A stretch of 64,000 nucleotides of DNA from Candidatus Woesearchaeota archaeon (lineage in GTDB: Archaea; Nanobdellota; Nanobdellia; Woesearchaeales; GW2011-AR4): the NCBI GenBank assembly GCA_018303625.1, contig JAGVXV010000010.1, forward strand, positions 13,411 through 77,410, in the 5' to 3' direction. The notes beneath the pieces are model-generated. The model was not told where the DNA came from, did no database searches, and saw only the letters and a program-made list of their open reading frames with translations. Of this stretch, positions 159 to 44,490 are shown one piece after another. The stretch's first letter is position 1. Each line of letters starts with the position of its first letter. Made by a program: the position numbers and the translations under genes.

Positions 159-779
159 TTATTTATTCTTAAGCCTATAATATGTTAAACGACCTATAAC
201 AAAACCTATTAGTGTTCCGCCAATATGCGCAAAAATATTAACATTAGTCTTATTGTTAGCAAATGCCATCCATAATAAAAAAAGAAGCAGCACTATGCCA
301 GTAATTCTTCTTCTTAATGGAATTTCTTTTAAAAAACAGAGCAAAAAAATTATTAATCCAATTAACGAGAATGCGATGCCAGAACTACCTAAAAAATATC
401 CTGCATTGCTCCCCATTTTTATGCTATACCAATAAGCAATCAAGGTTATCCAAGGTGTGATTAAAACTACACGTAACAAATAATATCTCGCCAATTCTTC
501 CCTCTTTATTTGTTGAAGCAATAAAAACAAGATTGTTAAACAAAGTAAAATAATGACTGTATTGGAAAAATAATGTTGAAAATCATAATTAATAAAATCT
601 TTAGTATATATTTGCCAAAATGAAAAATTATTCCGGTTTAAGGCTAATTGTTCTTTGTAATCTTGAAAAAATATATACAAGATCGACATTATTATTGGCA
701 AGATTAAAGTAAAACTAAATTCTTTGGAGTTAAATTTAAATGATTTTCTCATATTAACTAGAATTAACCATCCTATCAA
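159..779 (-). CDS. Rhomboid-family intramembrane serine protease (polytopic membrane protein)
   Basis: 206-aa multi-TM ORF. It has a 'GSSGIAFSLIG' (GxSG-like) motif and a downstream 'AHIGGTLIGF' (AHxxGxxxG) motif, typical of rhomboid catalytic Ser/His helices. The alternative start M10 (about 752) would remove the overlap with the ispG stop. Confidence 0.55.
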   Translation of the reverse strand: MIGWLILVNMRKSFKFNSKEFSFTLILPIIMSILYIFFQDYKEQLALNRNNFSFWQIYTKDFINYDFQHYFSNTVIILLCLTILFLLLQQIKREELARYYLLRVVLITPWITLIAYWYSIKMGSNAGYFLGSSGIAFSLIGLIIFLLCFLKEIPLRRRITGIVLLLFLLWMAFANNKTNVNIFAHIGGTLIGFVIGRLTYYRLKNK

Positions 780-1809
780 TCTCCTTCATCAGCGTCTCAA
801 CAATTTTCTCTTTCTCAACCTTTCCAATTATCTTTCCATCCTTGTACAATAAATTGGTGTTTCCAGCCCCGCCTACAATTCCCAAATCAACCTTTTTGCT
901 TTCTCCCGGGCCGTTGACAGCGCAGCCCATAACTGCAACATGAATGGGCTTCTTTATTTTTTCAGTTTTCTGCTCCAGCTCCTCAACCATTTTGATTACA
1001 TCAACATGAGTTCTTGCACATGTAGGGCATGAAGTAACTTCAACACCATCATTTCTTAAGCCCAGGCTTCTCAATATCAGTTTTGCAACCCTTACTTCCT
1101 CTTTGGGCTCCTCTGACAATGAAACACGAATTGTGTCGCCAATTCCCTCTGACAATAAAATTCCCATGCCCATAGAGCTTTTTACAGCCCCCGGAACTTT
1201 GCTTCCCGCTTCTGTAACACCCAAATGCAACGGATAATCTTTCTTTTGCGCAAAAATCCTGTAGGCCTGAACCATCCTCGGCACATCAGAAGCTTTCAAA
1301 GAAACAACAATGTCATAAAAATCCAAGTTTTCCAAAATTTTCACATGCCTTAAAGCGCTTTCTGCCATACCTTCCGCGCTGTAGCCGTATTTTTCAAACA
1401 AATCGCGCTCCAAAGAGCCGAGATTAACACCAATTCTCATCGGCAATCCGTATTCTTTTGCAGCATCAACAACCGCCTTAACCCTATCCTCTTTTCCAAT
1501 ATTTCCGGGATTAATTCTTAATTTATCAACATACTTTGCAGCTTCCAATGCAATCCTATAGTCAAAATGGATGTCTGCAATCAAAGGAAGGTTTATGTTT
1601 GCCTTAATTTCCTTCAGGGATTTTGCTGCCTCCATTGTAGGGGCTGAAACCCTTATTATGTCGCATCCAATTTCCTCAAGCTCAAGAATCTGCTTTACGG
1701 TTGCATTAATGTTAGTTGTATCAGTTGTGGTCATTGATTGAATAGCAATAGGGTTATTGCCCCCTATTTTTACATTCCCTATTTTAACTTCTCTTGATTT
1801 CCTTCTCAT
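754..1809 (-). CDS. ispG: 4-hydroxy-3-methylbut-2-enyl diphosphate synthase IspG/GcpE, bacterial type
   Basis: 351 aa, collinear with bacterial IspG over its full length: 'IAIQSMTTTDT', 'IADIHFDYRIAL', 'RINPGNIG', and C-terminal 'CPTCAR...GCAVNGPGE' [4Fe-4S] cysteines. Confidence 0.85.
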   Translation of the reverse strand: MRRKSREVKIGNVKIGGNNPIAIQSMTTTDTTNINATVKQILELEEIGCDIIRVSAPTMEAAKSLKEIKANINLPLIADIHFDYRIALEAAKYVDKLRINPGNIGKEDRVKAVVDAAKEYGLPMRIGVNLGSLERDLFEKYGYSAEGMAESALRHVKILENLDFYDIVVSLKASDVPRMVQAYRIFAQKKDYPLHLGVTEAGSKVPGAVKSSMGMGILLSEGIGDTIRVSLSEEPKEEVRVAKLILRSLGLRNDGVEVTSCPTCARTHVDVIKMVEELEQKTEKIKKPIHVAVMGCAVNGPGESKKVDLGIVGGAGNTNLLYKDGKIIGKVEKEKIVETLMKEIDRMVNSS

Positions 1810-1829: not shown

Positions 1830-2255
1830 CTATTTTCTTGCCAGATTTATTATCGGATTTCTGCTTTCAAAGCCGGCATAAATCTCATGCCAATGCCTTA
1901 TCGATTTTTCCCCCAGCTTCCAGCATAAAAAAATATCGCGATTTTCGAACTTATAGTAAAAATCAACCAAGCCCAGTTCAAGGTCTTTCAGCAGGCATCC
2001 CATGCTTTCGAGCTCGTCCAATTTCCTGTAAAACTCGTAGGAGAACTTGTGGAATTCCCTGTTCAGTTTTGTGACGTGCCTCAGGTGGGCGTAATTTTCC
2101 TCCTCAACCTCTATTTCAACGCCTTCCAATAAATCCAATGCATTGCTCAGCTGCCTCAGCCTTCTAACAATCTTCTCTATTTTAGGCAATAAAGTCTCAG
2201 CTTTATCAATTGTAAAATAGCTTTTTGCTTCCTCTGCCTCGATAAAATCCCTCAT
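1830..2255 (-). CDS. hypothetical protein
   Basis: 141-aa ORF with balanced composition, divergent from the L1 gene. No recognisable motif. Confidence 0.35.
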   Translation of the reverse strand: MRDFIEAEEAKSYFTIDKAETLLPKIEKIVRRLRQLSNALDLLEGVEIEVEEENYAHLRHVTKLNREFHKFSYEFYRKLDELESMGCLLKDLELGLVDFYYKFENRDIFLCWKLGEKSIRHWHEIYAGFESRNPIINLARK

Positions 2256-2389: not shown

Positions 2390-3202
2390 ATGGAAAAGAA
2401 CCAAGTAACTGAAGCGTTAAAGAGAGCAAAGGAAGTTTCTTCTAAAAGGAATTTTAACCAGAGTGTTGACCTAATCATAAACCTAAAAGGCTTGGACTTA
2501 AAAAAGCAGGAGCAGCAGCTGGACATATTTGCAAACCTGCATTACAGCAGGGGTAAAAAAATATCTGTCTGCGCCTTGATAGGAGCCGAGCTTCAGGAGC
2601 AGGCAAAGGCATGCGACGAGTTTATTCTTGTGGATGATTTCGCAAAATTCAGCAAGAAAAGTGAAATTAAGAAGCTGGCAAACAAGCATGATTTCTTTGT
2701 TGCGCAGGCAACAATAATGCCGAAAGTGGCTGCAACATTCGGAAGGGTTTTGGGCCCAAGGGGAAAAATGCCCAATCCGAAGATAGGCTGTGTCGTGCCT
2801 CCAAATGCCAACCTGAAGCCATTGTACGAGAAGCTGCAGAAAACCATGAGGATAATGACAAAAGGCAATCCTATTATACAGTGCTCTGTCGGGAAGGAGG
2901 ACTCCAGCGAGGAAGAAGTTGCAGACAATGCCATGACAATTTACAGCACGGTATTGCAGGCTTTGCCTAACGAAAAGCAGAACATAAAAGATGTTTACCT
3001 GAAGTTGACAATGGGCAAGGCAATCAAAATCGGGGAGAAGGCAGAGGAAGAGGAAACAGGTAAGAAGACCAGGAAAAAAGCAGGCAAAGAAAAGCCGAAG
3101 GAATCGGGCGAAGAGAAAAAAGCTGATGCGAAAAAAAAAGAAAAGCCGAAAAAAGAGAAAAAAACAAATGATAAACTCCCCAATAATGAAGATAAAAAAT
3201 AA
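2390..3202 (+). CDS. rpl1: 50S ribosomal protein uL1 with Lys-rich C-terminal extension
   Basis: The N-terminus 'ALKRAKEVSSKRNFNQSVDLIINLKGLDLKK' and 'MPKVAATFGRVLGPRGKMPNPK' are typical of L1. A GGAGG SD precedes the ATG. The roughly 50-aa K/E-rich tail is atypical. Confidence 0.9.
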   Translation: MEKNQVTEALKRAKEVSSKRNFNQSVDLIINLKGLDLKKQEQQLDIFANLHYSRGKKISVCALIGAELQEQAKACDEFILVDDFAKFSKKSEIKKLANKHDFFVAQATIMPKVAATFGRVLGPRGKMPNPKIGCVVPPNANLKPLYEKLQKTMRIMTKGNPIIQCSVGKEDSSEEEVADNAMTIYSTVLQALPNEKQNIKDVYLKLTMGKAIKIGEKAEEEETGKKTRKKAGKEKPKESGEEKKADAKKKEKPKKEKKTNDKLPNNEDKK

Positions 3203-3244: not shown

Positions 3245-4420
3245 ATGAAAATGGCTCACGTCGCTGAATATAAGAAGAGGATTGTGGAAAATATAGTAAA
3301 GCTCGCCAAGGAATATCCTATAGTCGGAGCTGTAAACATGGAAAACCTGCCGGCGCCCCAATTGCAGGCTATGAAGGCGCAGCTGAGGGGCAAGGTAGTC
3401 CTGGTAATGACAAAAAAAAGGCTCATAAAGATAGCCCTGGAAAAGCTGAAAAGCGAAAGAAAAGACATTGAAAAGCTGGAAGAGCACCTGAATGGCATGC
3501 CTGCCCTCATCTTCACGGGAGAAAGCCCCTTCAAGCTAAGCAGAATACTGCAGAAAAACAAGAGCAAGGCTCCTGCAAAAGGAGGCCAGATTGCTCCAAG
3601 GGATATTATGGTTAATAAAGGCTCCACAGGATTTGCCCCTGGCCCAATTATCGGGGAATTGGGAATGGTCGGCATCAAGACAGGAGTCGAGGGAGGGAAA
3701 GTCGCTGTCAAGGAGGATACAGTAGTTGTGAGGCAGGGCGAGCAAATAAAGCCAAAAGTAGCAGAGATTCTGACAAGGCTTGGCATAGAGCCCATGGAAG
3801 TAGGCCTGGATTTGATGGCTGCCTATGAAAATGGGCTGGTATACACCAGAGACATACTGACAATTGACGACCAGCAATACCTTAGCATGCTTAATAATGC
3901 GGCAAAAAGCGCATTTAATTTATCTTTCAACGCAGCTTATCCAACAAAGGACAATATCCAGCTGCTGATATCAAAGGCGTTTAATGACTCAAGGGCCTTG
4001 GGCTTAAGCCAGGAAATCATCGACAGCGGCATTGTCGAGGAATTGCTTGCAAAGGCTGAAAGGTCTCTGCTGAGCCTGAAAAATACTGCAAAAATAGATG
4101 TTCCTGAAAAAATTTCCCAGGACGGTAAAGAAACAGAAGCTAAAAAAGAAGCAAAAGCAAAGCACAAAAAGGCTGGAAAAATAAGCCATGAAACAGACAA
4201 AAAAGTTGAAGCTTTGCCGGAAGAAAAAGAGAAATTTCCACAAGAAGAAGTAAAGAAAGAGGAAGCAAAGGACGCAGTAAAAAACAAAGAAGAAGAGATT
4301 GTAAGAGAGGAACTGGATGAGCTGGAGCATGATATTCTGAAAAATAAAGAGGAAAAAGAGCGGGAGCAAATTGAGGATTTAACAAAAGAATTGGTAAGAA
4401 AAGGCACATTAAGAAAATAA
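3245..4420 (+). CDS. rplP0: Ribosomal stalk protein P0 (uL10) with long K/E-rich C-terminal extension
   Basis: Archaeal P0 N-terminal domain ('KKRIVENIVKLAKEYPIVGAVNMENLPAPQLQ', 'GMPALIFTGESPF'). Its position between L1 and P1 fits. The C-terminus ends '...LVRKGTLRK', not the usual GLxALFG peptide. Confidence 0.9.
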   Translation: MKMAHVAEYKKRIVENIVKLAKEYPIVGAVNMENLPAPQLQAMKAQLRGKVVLVMTKKRLIKIALEKLKSERKDIEKLEEHLNGMPALIFTGESPFKLSRILQKNKSKAPAKGGQIAPRDIMVNKGSTGFAPGPIIGELGMVGIKTGVEGGKVAVKEDTVVVRQGEQIKPKVAEILTRLGIEPMEVGLDLMAAYENGLVYTRDILTIDDQQYLSMLNNAAKSAFNLSFNAAYPTKDNIQLLISKAFNDSRALGLSQEIIDSGIVEELLAKAERSLLSLKNTAKIDVPEKISQDGKETEAKKEAKAKHKKAGKISHETDKKVEALPEEKEKFPQEEVKKEEAKDAVKNKEEEIVREELDELEHDILKNKEEKEREQIEDLTKELVRKGTLRK

Positions 4421-4455
4421 ATTGATTTTGATAAAATAAACTAGGAGGGGTATAA

Positions 4456-4761
4456 ATGGAGTACATCTATAGTGCAATGCTGCTGCATAAAGCAGGGCAG
4501 CAGGTTAATGAAGCGAATGTGAAGAAAGTGCTCGAGGCTGCCGGAGTCAAGGTAAATGATGCCAGGGCAAAAGCTTTGGTGGCAGCTTTGGAAGGAGTGA
4601 ATATAGACGAAGCTATAGAGAAGGCTGCTGTTCCTGTTGCGCCAGTGGCTCAAGCTGCTGAAGCAAAAGCTGAAAGCAAGGTTGACGAAAAGAAAAAAGC
4701 AGAGGAAGAAAAGAAGGGCGAGGAGCAGGCAGCGGCAGGCTTAGGGGCGCTTTTCGGTTAG
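4456..4761 (+). CDS. rpl12: Ribosomal stalk protein P1 (aL12)
   Basis: 101 aa starting '[30 protein letters not shown]' with an Ala/Glu-rich linker and the conserved C-terminal '[13 protein letters not shown]'. A strong SD 'AGGAGGGG' lies upstream. Confidence 0.9.
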
Positions 4762-4799: not shown

Positions 4800-5657
4800 A
4801 TGCAAAAAGAGAACGAGCTATTCAGCAGGCTAAATGAAATAAAGAAGGAAATAAACGCCTTGAAGAACAAGCTTAATGAAATTGACAAGGAGAAGGAATC
4901 GTGGTTTGGCAAAAAGGAAGGATGCAGCAAAAAAATAAGGGGCCTTATAATCTCTGTCAGGGAAAAAAGGGGCAAGAGGGACAAGCTGACAAAAAAGGTC
5001 AGGGATGACAAGGAAAAAAGGAATGCCCTCAATGAAAAAATAAAAAATTCTATTTCTGAAATCAAAAGGCTTAATCAGGAGAAAAATTCCCTGATAAAAA
5101 AACACGGCTTCAAGGAGGATCCTTTCAGGATCAAAGGCGAAATTGACAGGCTGGAGCTGAAAATAGAAACAGAGGCCATGCCCTTTGATAAGGAGCAGAA
5201 AATAACCAAGCAGGTAAAAGAGCTGAAAAGGAGATTTGACGAATCAAAAATTTTGGGCGATATTCTGGAAAAAGGAGGCAGCTTGGGCAAAGAAGCCTAC
5301 AACCTGAAAAGCGAAGCTGAGATTCTGCATGAGTCTATACAGGAAAATGCGAAGCAAAGCCAGGCAATACACGAGGGGATAATTGCAGATTCCGGGGAAA
5401 TCGATAAGCTTAAGCTAAGCGAAGAGGAGTCTTTTTCAAAATTTTTGGAATTGAAGAAAAGTTTCAGCGAAATTAATTCCGTGCTAAAGGAAAAGCTCGG
5501 GGAATACAGCAGCCTAAGCTCGGAAATGCAAAAAATGCGGGATGAAAATGAGGAGAAACTAATCAGGGACAAGGAAGAGTTCATCAGGGAAAAAATCAAA
5601 AAGGGGCAGAAACTGACTACAGAAGATTTATGGATATTCCAAAACCAGAAAAAATGA
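4800..5657 (+). CDS. Archaeal coiled-coil protein (COG1340-like), function unknown
   Basis: 285-aa K/E-rich ORF with heptad-like repeats throughout and a C-terminal 'KGQKLTTEDLWIFQ' motif. No enzymatic motifs. Confidence 0.4.
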   Translation: MQKENELFSRLNEIKKEINALKNKLNEIDKEKESWFGKKEGCSKKIRGLIISVREKRGKRDKLTKKVRDDKEKRNALNEKIKNSISEIKRLNQEKNSLIKKHGFKEDPFRIKGEIDRLELKIETEAMPFDKEQKITKQVKELKRRFDESKILGDILEKGGSLGKEAYNLKSEAEILHESIQENAKQSQAIHEGIIADSGEIDKLKLSEEESFSKFLELKKSFSEINSVLKEKLGEYSSLSSEMQKMRDENEEKLIRDKEEFIREKIKKGQKLTTEDLWIFQNQKK

Positions 5658-5845: not shown

Positions 5846-6136
5846 TTACTCTTTAGCTTCCTTAGCCGGGGCTTTTTCTTTTTTCGGCTTTATCTCAATG
5901 CTGCCCATCTCTTTCTCATCATTGTAGAGATAGCTTTCCACGCTTGCTTTCTTTAAGCCAAAATCAGTGTAAATGTGCTTGACAACAACCAAATTCTCAT
6001 TGGCGTTCAGCAAAGAGGCAATCTTTGATTTGGTTTCATTTTTTGATGGAGTTGAAGCGCTGAAATTTACCTCTGAGATTATTTTCGTCCTTGACAGCAA
6101 TGGCTCTTCCTTCTTTTCGATTATCTTCAGATCCAT
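5846..6136 (-). CDS. rps24e: 30S ribosomal protein S24e
   Basis: Internal start '[23 protein letters not shown]...[19 protein letters not shown]' matches the S24e fold. The 47-aa N-terminal extension in the ORF track begins at GTG and is unlikely to be translated. Confidence 0.8.
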
Positions 6137-6141
6137 AGAAC

Positions 6142-6327
6142 TCACCTGACTTTTATTGCATATTCTCCTTTTGCAGCTAATCCTATCTTTTTTGCTATAA
6201 GGGACTTGTCCGCGTCCAAAATGTGAAGCCTTCCCTGCCAGCTTACGGAAAACTGGTTGCCTTTGCAGACAGGGCACTCGCTACCTTCAACAAATATCTT
6301 GCATTTTTTGCAGACTTTTTTTTTCAT
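6142..6327 (-). CDS. spt4: Transcription elongation factor Spt4 / RNA polymerase subunit E''
   Basis: 61-aa Zn-ribbon 'CKKCKIFVEGSECPVCKGNQF' followed by 'GRLHILDADKSLIAKKIG', typical of Spt4. It sits in the conserved position between rpoE' and S24e. Confidence 0.75.
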   Translation of the reverse strand: MKKKVCKKCKIFVEGSECPVCKGNQFSVSWQGRLHILDADKSLIAKKIGLAAKGEYAIKVR

Positions 6328-6914
6328 TTTTTATCCTTGTCTTTTCCTTTTTGCTCTTTCTTTGGTTTTGGAATTTCTTTCTGCTCAGGATGGTCTATCC
6401 AGTCCAGCCTTCCAAGGCCCTGCTGCCTCATTGTAAGTCCAAGCTTTGGATTATTGCTGTCTTTGAATGAAACTGCTATTATGCGCGCCCTGCATATGTC
6501 ATTTACCTTCAATACCCTTTTGCTCTCCTTGCCCGCTAATGTCTTGTCCTTGCTGAAGCTTACGAAATCGTCCATTGTCTGGCTTACATGTATCATGCCT
6601 TCTATAGGCCCTAGATTCATAAAAGCGCCGAAATCCACGATATCTTTTATTCTGCCAGTAATGACTTCCTGCAATTCAGGCTTGAATGTAAGCAGCTCAA
6701 AGGTTGTTTCATAGTAGGAAGCGCCGTCTCCGGGTATGATTATGCCTTCACCGATTTCCTTTACATTGGATACATCAATGACTATTCCCATGTTTTGGGA
6801 AATGAAGCCTTCATATTTCACCTTTACCCTTTTTACGATAGCCTCCTCAACAGGAAGGCCAAACATGTCCGGAGGCACCCGTATATGGTCCTTTAGCTCA
6901 ATTTTGTAAAACAT
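6324..6914 (-). CDS. rpoE: DNA-directed RNA polymerase subunit E' (Rpo7)
   Basis: The N-terminus 'MFYKIELKDHIRVPPDMFG' and an S1-like domain 'GRIKDIVDFGAFMNLGPIEGMIHVSQ' are typical of RpoE'. It ends in a K/D-rich tail. Confidence 0.85.
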   Translation of the reverse strand: MFYKIELKDHIRVPPDMFGLPVEEAIVKRVKVKYEGFISQNMGIVIDVSNVKEIGEGIIIPGDGASYYETTFELLTFKPELQEVITGRIKDIVDFGAFMNLGPIEGMIHVSQTMDDFVSFSKDKTLAGKESKRVLKVNDICRARIIAVSFKDSNNPKLGLTMRQQGLGRLDWIDHPEQKEIPKPKKEQKGKDKDKK

Positions 6915-9082: not shown

Positions 9083-9416
9083 CTACTTTGCAGAGGGACT
9101 GGCGCTTAGCTGTCGGCAGAGATACTAAATCTGCTTTGCAGATTTATTCAATCTTCTGCTGAGGAAAGTCCATCCACACCTGCCTTGCAGGAAGCAGCCA
9201 CTTTCGGAAGAAAGTTCCAGCAATGGAAGTAAACCGCACAGAAACGAGACCTCCCTGGCTAAGGATGATAAACGCGAAGTTTCCCGCGAGGGAAATGAGT
9301 TAACCTTTTGACGTTGCCAAGGAAAGGATGAAACGGCGAGCACTGGCTTGTGCAACCTTTACAGGGCTTAGTTAAATGCTAAGGCAGATGATCGCAACCT
9401 TATGTTGCAAAAAGCA
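9083..9416 (+). ncRNA. rnpB: RNase P RNA (archaeal), approximate ends
   Basis: A roughly 330-nt GC-rich island in AT-rich DNA with no credible ORF. It contains the universal P4 motif 'GAGGAAAGTCC' (about 9161-9171) and a CR-V-like 'ACAGGGCTTAG' (about 9361-9371). The 5' 'CTTTGCAG' pairs with the 3' 'TTGCAAAAAG' as helix P1. Confidence 0.7.
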
Positions 9417-9466
9417 TCTGACAGAAGATGGCTTATGCCAGTCCCATTTTTCAATATTCGGTTAAA

Positions 9467-12077: not shown

Positions 12078-12171
12078 GGTGGCCGTAGTTTAATGGTAGA
12101 ATAAGCGGCTGTGGATTGCTTTGTTTGCAAACAGAGCCCGCTTGGAGTGGGTTCGATTCCCACCGGCTGCC
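12078..12171 (+). tRNA. tRNA-His (GTG) with about 22-nt intron in anticodon loop; G-1 encoded
   Basis: Acceptor GTGGCCG/CGGCTGC, an extra 5' G-1 opposite discriminator C73 (a His identity element), U8A9, D-arm GTTT/GAAT, and anticodon stem AGCGG/CCGCT with loop CTGTGG|intron|. The T-arm is GTGGG-TTCGATT-CCCAC. Confidence 0.7.
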
Positions 12172-12258
12172 CTTTTTTATATAAAATGGCGGGTTCGTTT
12201 CAGCTTTGGTGATTTTTATTTTTTTCCGCAAGCTTTTTAAATACCCCCATTATCCTTA

Positions 12259-22825: not shown

Positions 22826-23105
22826 TAAGCGGGAGGACGCGCTTGAAAATGGGCAGGATCCTCGCTATCAGTTAACCCTGAGCTTTTCTTGGCCCTGTTT
22901 TCTGTAAGCACCGATGCCAAAGGTTAAGGCTGCTTCCTTCCGGACCTGACCTATTTCCCAAAAACACCAGCCAAACAGGACAAAGCCTCATTGTCGAGCC
23001 CAAGACTGATAGTTTTGGAAAGTGCCTCTTTTCCAGCTTCACCCTGTGTAAAGCGTATTCACAGTTACAGGAGAGCGCTAACCTCCCAGCAAAGTCCTCC
23101 CATAA
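22826..23105 (-). ncRNA. ffs: Signal recognition particle RNA (7S/SRP RNA), approximate ends
   Basis: The minus strand contains 'GGTCAGGTCCGGAAGGAAGCAGCC', identical to the universally conserved helix-8 (domain IV) segment of 4.5S/7S RNA. The 5' 'GGGAGGAC' pairs with the 3' 'GTCCTCCC'. An oligo-T run follows the 3' end. The island is GC-rich with no plausible ORF. Confidence 0.8.
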
Positions 23106-44362: not shown

Positions 44363-44490
44363 TGGGCCTGCCAGGATTTGAACCTGGGACCATTCTCGGC
44401 TTATTGGCTCTCGATGTCTAACAGCTGGTTATCAGTTTCGCCGCCTCTTCTGGAGACTCGAGCATTCTAACCAGACTGAACTACAGGCCC
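44363..44490 (-). tRNA. tRNA, 128 nt, with a roughly 36-nt anticodon-loop intron and extra nucleotides in the variable region; anticodon probably CTC (Glu) but uncertain
   Basis: Minus strand. Acceptor GGGCCTG/CAGGCCC with A73. An intact D-arm GTTC-AGTCTGGTTA-GAAT. Anticodon stem CTCGA/TCGAG enclosing 43 nt. T-arm CCAGG-TTCAAAT-CCTGG preceded by 22 nt. Confidence 0.55.

Follow-up and report, generated by a model that had tools for sequence, protein, structure and literature searches.

The closest described counterpart of the locus considered here is the ribosomal stalk of Pyrococcus (P. horikoshii, 3A1Y; P. furiosus, 4V6U), a heptameric aP0(aP1)2(aP1)2(aP1)2 complex. In archaea, aP0 normally bears a region homologous to the C-terminus of aP1, which gives the stalk seven factor-binding sites, and the tail of Pyrococcus P0 accordingly ends in the factor-binding peptide of aP1 (PMC7768734). 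The DNA analysed here is a 64-kb stretch (hereafter, the window; G+C content 40%) of contig JAGVXV010000010.1 from a Candidatus Woesearchaeota archaeon (DPANN, class Nanoarchaeia), and its uL10/P0 gene encodes a stalk-base protein of the same family and fold, with the same three spine helices, in the same L1-P0-P1 gene order and beside a P1 with a canonical GLGALFG end. However, the window P0 lacks the factor-binding peptide and carries a 106-amino-acid (aa) lysine/glutamate (K/E) linker with a VE-DL-KEL-KGTLRK motif that is found only in Woesearchaeota-type P0.

A more distant point of comparison is the bacterial bL10-(bL12)n stalk, where L10 carries no factor-binding element and the number of binding modules differs between lineages. 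The likeness that can be proposed is that the base protein anchors the dimers while the dimeric stalk proteins make all of the factor contacts; nevertheless, bL12 has a globular C-terminal domain and not a peptide, the relevant parts of the stalk proteins are non-homologous, and a long disordered tail that finishes in a conserved motif is absent from bacterial L10. Another protein with an L10-type domain at its N-terminus is eukaryotic Mrt4, a P0 paralogue from which the stalk-forming C-terminal part is missing. It too is devoid of the acidic factor-binding C-terminus, but its PDB match to the window protein is about 60 orders of magnitude weaker than that of P0 (E ~1e-9 against ~1e-70). The possibility of an Mrt4-like paralogue was rejected, as the P1-binding spine of the window P0 is complete and its gene lies between those of L1 and P1; it is the ribosomal protein rather than a biogenesis placeholder.

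The P0 gene and its tail

The P0 gene occupies positions 3245..4420 of the forward strand (391 aa) and is co-oriented with its two neighbours, L1 (2390-3202) and P1 (4456-4761). Pfam recognises Ribosomal_L10 (PF00466; residues 7-105, E 1.4e-20, 73.6 bits against a cutoff of 22.8) and RL10P_insert (PF17777; residues 111-181, E 4.8e-16), and a phmmer search of the PDB matches the P0 of P. horikoshii and P. furiosus at E ~1e-70. These rRNA-binding and archaeal/eukaryotic insertion domains together span 3263..3787 and are modelled by AlphaFold2, in a prediction built with 55 homologues, at a predicted local distance difference test (pLDDT) score of ~85-94. An earlier reading of this DNA, made from the sequence alone, had proposed an alignment with archaeal P0; the window protein is colinear with Pyrococcus P0 (PDB chain 3A1Y_G) across residues 3-278 (E 1.6e-69) and then continues into a divergent tail. 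The three helices of the spine (residues 209-231, 235-252 and 261-282; 3869..4090, forward strand) are present both in the AlphaFold secondary structure and in the 3A1Y_G alignment, which covers the spine through residue 278, and they are presumed to be the docking sites for three P1 dimers.

Two in-frame ATGs open the P0 reading frame (MKMAHV…), at 3245 and 3251. Most homologues start at the MAHVAEYKK that follows the second of them, and Pyrococcus P0 likewise starts at MAHVAE; thus, ATG 3251 is likely to be the true start, giving a protein of 389 aa. Versions of 391 and 389 aa are both present in public records, where the identical protein is available as MBS3102194.1, '50S ribosomal protein L10 [Candidatus Woesearchaeota archaeon]'. 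It is nearly certain that the window P0 is an intact gene that combines an ordinary uL10/P0 core and spine (residues 1-285) with a new tail.

This tail comprises residues 286-391 (106 aa), ending ...IEDLTKELVRKGTLRK; its final residues read DLTKELVRKGTLRK, with KELVRKGTLRK at the end in place of GLxxLFG. Its composition (24.5% E and 22.6% K, or 47% K+E, against 18.6% K+E in the core) bears out the K/E-rich extension of about 100 aa that the sequence-only reading had described. The description of the whole tail as low-complexity holds for the K/E-rich linker but not for the end, which is a selected motif common to ~100 related P0 proteins; therefore, the canonical peptide has been replaced and not just deleted. 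The linker (residues 286-372; 4100..4360, forward strand) is delimited by composition and by AlphaFold pLDDT, with residues 284-344 disordered at pLDDT <50, and it holds at residues ~358-367 the sequence ELEHDILKNK, a degenerate remnant of a 'VPSAHDL-KKK' module (module B below). The conserved C-terminal motif REQIEDLTKELVRKGTLRK (residues 373-391; 4361..4417, forward strand) is the single module of its kind (module C below) in the window P0 and is delimited by alignment, codon diversity, AlphaFold and hydrophobic moment. AlphaFold places a C-terminal helix at residues 340-385, with pLDDT 80-87 over 361-380, and the helical hydrophobic moment is highest at residues 373-386, around IEDLTKELVRK. 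The P0 end motif is thus modelled as an amphipathic helix with a basic G-T-L-R-K cap, borne on a flexible leash.

The searches made with the tail returned little of note. Pfam, queried with four tails at E-values up to 10, gave best E-values of 0.012-0.19, spread over unrelated families, and a PDB search with the motif profile gave nothing meaningful, its top match (E 0.18) being a designed protein. A weak match of the tail to an MCM winged helix (E 0.089) was discarded, as it reflects a common 'L..L..KG.L.R' helix-turn pattern alone, and a tandem-repeat origin of the tail was also discarded, the repeat search having found just a weak 12-nucleotide (nt) repeat at 4131-4171.

The sequence-only reading had itself raised a frameshift or assembly error as the way in which its observation could fail, and a sequencing or assembly artefact, in which a 3' frameshift or truncation hides a canonical GLxALFG, is one alternative to a genuine replacement. 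The three forward frames translated over 4051-4460 contain no GLxALFG, and the two alternative frames are dense in stop codons. Moreover, gene calls of the 389-aa form exist for 38 contigs (NCBI, JGI, Logan and ENA), which excludes a one-off assembly error, and the same terminus recurs in ~100 distinct relatives. An artefact of this kind can therefore be given practically no weight, and the contrast first noted between the two proteins, with the P1-like factor-binding peptide missing from P0 and retained in P1, stands: no frame encodes the peptide behind P0, and the canonical end is read in P1. For annotation, this means that a P0 of these genomes that lacks GLxxLFG should be taken as real and not as the product of a frameshift.

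P0 and P1 ends among related archaea

Relatives were collected in three sets, consisting of the 120 best protein-database matches (those bearing names being Woesearchaeota or Nanoarchaeota), 80 loci out of GTDB species-representative genomes and 77 extra proteins obtained via a divergent seed. Once pooled, they amount to 245 distinct P0 sequences of Woesearchaeota/Nanoarchaeia, a sample of best-scoring relatives. GLxxLF is present in the P0 tail of 0/245 sequences, and thus the comparison with relatives that the sequence-only reading had suggested yields non-canonical P0 ends in 245/245. The P1 gene of the window (4456..4761, forward strand; 101 aa) has both the family domain (PF00428, E 2.6e-14) and the canonical GLxxLFG factor-binding end, at nt 4729-4758. 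Among the 80 related loci, every complete, readable P1 ends in AAAGLG[AS]LFG or a near variant, and the L1-P0-P1 order is kept in all of those that have both flanking genes inside the contig. As the P1 end is kept and P0 is without the peptide, the stalk in this clade holds the canonical ligand on P1 alone. A search for the KGTLR motif or for an atypical woesearchaeal stalk found no paper in the literature library that was searched.

P0 tails in these relatives range in length from 0 to 439 residues (median 89 overall and 222 in the GTLR class), and their linkers are K/E(/P)-rich, hypervariable and essentially not alignable. Within or after these linkers lie one to ~4 copies of short, conserved helical modules in varying order. 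Module A, [MV]VE+TKKFxxGxxxP[ST]AxDI, and module B, VP[ST]AH[ED]L+KKK, occur within the linkers, and module C, the main one, (Q)K(E)VE[DE]L[AT]KEL[ILV][KR]KGTLR(K), lies with few exceptions at the very C-terminus. Of the 245 P0 proteins, 99 have one or more GTLR modules, 94 have one at five or fewer residues from the C-terminus and 9 have at least two copies; a PTREELEANI variant is found in 92/245, and 32/245 are essentially tail-less. There is also a variant that joins modules B and C, PTREELEANIKMREKQKEVKEVEKIYHDIHKK, and in the relative L072 the two are fused in VPSAHELYEKLKKKGTLRG, which suggests that a single ancestral peptide lies behind both modules.

When the alignment is anchored on GTLR and counts are taken at positions outside the search pattern (n=94), L(-11) is kept in 93/94, L(-7) in 94/94, E(-13) in 90/94 and K(-4) in 91/94 sequences, and the mean column entropy is 0.98 bit in the motif versus 3.10 bit in the 60 residues before it. 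In the DNA of 28 loci, every one of the six Leu codons occurs at the invariant Leu positions of the motif, and the four codons each of Gly and Thr are likewise all represented. This synonymous diversity shows that it is the protein that is constrained, rather than a nucleotide signal related to P1, and the comparison thus indicates that the motif VE[DE]LxKELx[KR]KGTLR(K) is under protein-level purifying selection. A conserved P0 end could in principle reflect a promoter, a ribosome-binding site or an RNA structure serving the downstream P1, as no more than 36 nt separate the motif from the start of P1 and a promoter-like match spans 4409-4437. However, apart from the codon usage, the motif is also internal and far from P1 in several relatives, and a nucleotide-level signal seems very improbable as the cause of its conservation.

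In a clustering of the P0 core (residues 1-280), the GTLR motif is spread over many deep clusters and the PTREELEANI...EVEKIYHDIHKK form is restricted to a single large cluster plus a singleton. P0 proteins without a tail are dispersed over the core clusters, which points to repeated loss of the tail. This distribution fits a motif that is old in the clade, with an ancestral form, one derived variant and repeated losses.

The motif is also confined to P0 in the sequences searched. A profile of 32 columns (alignment A2), searched at E<=1e-3 against 1.84 billion representative proteins, gave 26 matches, which are full-length P0, P0-tail fragments or open reading frames (ORFs) with an unrelated N-terminus; in 25/26 at most a few residues follow the motif before the C-terminus, the exception being a frame-broken fragment. 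When 910 kb of woesearchaeal DNA was screened by hmmsearch (n=8,822 ORFs), the only non-P0 matches were two ORFs on short suspect contigs, and regular-expression scans of the window, and of 875 kb of related loci together with the window, found the motif in P0 solely. The unrelated N-termini joined to a P0 tail include those of an OB-fold protein (P0133), a kinase fragment (P0141) and an antisense P0 (P0129), while those of P0125 and P0137 resemble, by reading of the sequences, bacterial BCCP and Fmt; P0128 is also among these metagenome-derived entries. P0133 and P0141, which look most like genuine fusions, lie on two short contigs, one of 1,110 bp (coverage 1.4) and one of 907 bp, and the 'kinase' ORF of P0141 directly precedes the P1 start codon and MEYVYAAMLIHK. 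P0133 and P0141 were therefore rejected as genuine non-P0 fusions and treated as chimeras, given the short contigs and the P1 start that follows the kinase ORF. Misassembly at low-complexity K/E DNA is the probable origin of the hybrid entries, which constitute a trap for motif searches.

Some relatives differ in the gap between P0 and P1. In L050 (6903-7668) and L061 (3254-4065), where P0 is nearly tail-less, the gap is occupied by an ORF of 204-253 aa that is K/E-rich, lies in a different frame and bears no GTLR motif; this ORF may be a gene of its own or else a tail that has been split off or frameshifted. In L009 (3200-4300), and also in L002 and L033, an ORF of 365-490 aa with LAGLIDADG-like and helix-turn-helix domains lies between P0 and P1 and, from its sequence, looks like a free-standing homing-endonuclease-type gene.

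Possible roles of the P0 tail

The interpretation that we favour, with somewhat better than even confidence, is that P0 is intact and functional, that the stalk base has been remodelled throughout the lineage, that factor recruitment is left to P1 only, and that the P0 tail presents a docking peptide. In this arrangement, aEF1A, aEF2, aIF5B and ABCE1 would be recruited by only the six P1 tails of a P0(P1)2(P1)2(P1)2 complex. The P0 tail would in turn act as a flexible tether that offers a lineage-specific docking peptide, made of the amphipathic helix and the basic cap, to a putative partner. As the canonical ligand is still present on P1, this partner would probably be bound elsewhere than in the canonical GTPase groove. 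The docking-peptide mechanism has about an even chance of being right. A more tentative extension is that the P0 peptide may have been swapped for a tethered, sometimes multi-copy …VEDLxKELxKKGTLR that recruits a non-canonical partner, with uL11 extended in parallel. If so, the partner could be, for example, a lineage-specific translation, targeting or hibernation factor held on a leash of up to ~440 residues, and the P0 tail, together with a uL11 extension that has a stalk-hinge-like linker, would make up a type of stalk that had not been recognised before, in a major clade of uncultured archaea.

Several points weigh against the docking interpretation. The Pfam, PDB and profile searches gave no pointer to a binding partner of the motif, and the tail is dispensable in some lineages, because 32/245 relatives are essentially tail-less. 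That P1 alone may be enough for factor recruitment, with six copies rather than seven, is argued by analogy. Moreover, K/E-rich tails are widespread in this genome, as L1, Rpo7 and S24e show, and the P0 linker itself may be compositional drift. Finally, the second search, seeded from the divergent relative L075, returned non-canonical tails exclusively, and the boundary of the canonical P0 tail lies outside the sample.

Some of these observations would also suit a tail that has no function, a by-product of the K/E-rich extensions of the lineage in which P0 merely lost a redundant seventh peptide. The 55-aa K/E tail of L1, the K-rich ends of Rpo7 and S24e, the hypervariable length (0-439 aa) and sequence of the linker and the tail-less P0 proteins are all compatible with it. 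Nevertheless, the end motif is near-invariant across deep clusters though synonymous sites are saturated, and AlphaFold gives a confident helix at precisely this motif; since L1 tails have no conserved end, a general K/E expansion fails to explain the P0 motif. We consider a functionless tail to be unlikely.

Alternatively, the motif could be a functional substitute for the canonical peptide, binding aEF1A, aEF2, aIF5B or ABCE1 at another surface or at one that has co-evolved, in which case at least seven sites would be kept. It matches the canonical peptide in position and architecture, with a charged flexible linker followed by a short amphipathic helix, and the several copies present in some relatives recall the factor-pool principle (PMC7768734). 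However, P1 of the same genomes keeps its canonical end unchanged, so that the factors presumably use the canonical groove still, the motif ends in a basic cluster and not in GLxxLFG, the profile finds nothing related in the PDB chain library, and tail-less variants of P0 exist. A substitute factor-binding site thus commands little credence.

The terminal helix could also serve as an extra docking site for a P1 dimer, that is, as a tethered fourth spine helix that raises the P1 copy number. Bacterial stalks vary in stoichiometry, as bacterial L10 varies the number of L12-dimer sites, which would provide a parallel, and by eye the motif is like spine helix 3 (IVEELLAKAE versus QIEDLTKELV). In an hhalign comparison with the P0 core profile, however, the motif matches no spine helix, and its best local match lies elsewhere with a probability of 0.4%; moreover, its hydrophobic face is weaker and it contains a Gly, which breaks helices. 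An extra P1 site is accordingly quite improbable.

Whatever the partner of the tail, the picture of 'seven identical tails' needs revision for a large, globally distributed DPANN clade, in which the canonical peptide of P0 has been replaced, beyond mere deletion, by a different selected motif on a very long flexible leash. These organisms could also be seen as a natural experiment on the number of stalk tails that a ribosome needs. If the docking interpretation holds, the 19-residue peptide would be a testable handle on a new ribosome-associated partner in organisms that are unculturable.

uL11 and the neighbouring genes

The sequence-only reading had further noted that uL11 is missing from the L1-P0-P1 cluster and considered it replaced by a divergent hypothetical gene. 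The first part is correct, as uL11 is not adjacent to L1; tblastn with M. jannaschii-like, Sulfolobus-like, E. coli and woesearchaeal queries gave no match in the 64 kb of the window, and uL11 is absent within 6 kb upstream of P0 in 79/80 related loci, the exception being L066, where it lies 4.7 kb upstream of P0 with unrelated genes between. The second part is not, since the loci are split and no replacement has taken place. The gene at the position held by uL11 in some other archaea, immediately upstream of L1, is a divergent DUF2203 gene (1830..2255, reverse strand; PF09969, E 1.2e-31) that lies outside the stalk. As for the whereabouts of rpl11, woesearchaeal uL11 is found in FtsZ-SecE-Spt5(NusG)-uL11 clusters of relatives. 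The window does not have uL11 immediately upstream of uL1, as in the canonical secE-nusG-L11-L1-L10-L12 order, and gene order in the relatives identifies this absence as an ordinary split of that ancestral array. A similar split into secE-nusG-L11 and L1-L10-L12 occurs in Methanococcales, with the same L1-P0-P1 unit devoid of uL11 and, as in woesearchaea, uL11 placed elsewhere after SecE and Spt5/NusG. The difference lies in uL11 itself, which in woesearchaea is ~100 aa longer than usual and has a helical extension and a hinge-like A/G/P/E linker.

Woesearchaeal uL11 proteins measure 244-306 aa (L066:32-841; L083:6001-6807; L084:6001-6822), the usual length being ~160 aa. The extension consists of ~70 highly conserved residues, KTELTAEEKAKLEEEKKKLAEEMEKRRAEFEKTAKEIIASMAGKERGEIKAKLKEANIPDAMIKELLPVEG, with the conserved stretches …LTAEEKAKLEEEKKKLAEEMEKRRAEFEK…IPDAMIKELLPVEG, and is followed by a variable A/G/P/E-rich linker and a K-rich end. 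AlphaFold predicts helices at residues 167-201, 207-216 and 221-227 of uL11 (pLDDT 76-86) and a disordered end, and no Pfam model matches the extension. With the P0 tail and the uL11 extension taken together, both stalk-base proteins have therefore been remodelled in this clade.

The uL1 gene (2390..3202, forward strand; 270 aa) has its Ribosomal_L1 domain at residues 18-209 (PF00687, E 1.7e-42), followed by a K/E-rich C-terminal tail of ~55 aa (nt ~3035-3199) without a conserved end motif. A long L1 (250-291 aa in total) accompanies the GTLR-type P0 in many related loci, some GTLR-type loci having a short one, and in most class-b loci L1 measures 226 aa. Downstream of P1, on the same strand, the window encodes a DUF7121 protein (4800-5657; 285 aa), which is a K/E-rich coiled coil; this gene is found downstream of P1 in at least 70/80 related loci, usually adjacent to it and whatever the class of the P0 tail. 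The order L1-P0-P1-DUF7121, followed on the opposite strand by S27a, S24e, Spt4, Rpo7 and PIN, is kept in most of the 80 loci. At 6324-6914 and 5846-6277 of the window (reverse strand), Rpo7/RpoE' ends …KPKKEQKGKDKDKK and S24e also ends K-rich; short K-rich C-terminal tails seem, from these sequences, to be general in this proteome.

On the other side of the stalk genes, the window holds a full-length GcpE/IspG gene (754-1809, reverse strand; E 4.6e-150), an enzyme of the methylerythritol phosphate (MEP) pathway, the bacterial-type route to isoprenoids. Its presence in an archaeon is unexpected, since isoprenoid synthesis in this domain normally follows the mevalonate route; GcpE/IspG is also found upstream of L1 in 20/80 related loci. 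Further away, and in keeping with the archaeal identity of the window, lie an archaeal RNase P RNA (9095-9445), an archaeal signal recognition particle (SRP) RNA (22831-23101) and two overlong tRNA genes (12079-12172, 94 nt; 44363-44490, 128 nt), which probably contain introns.

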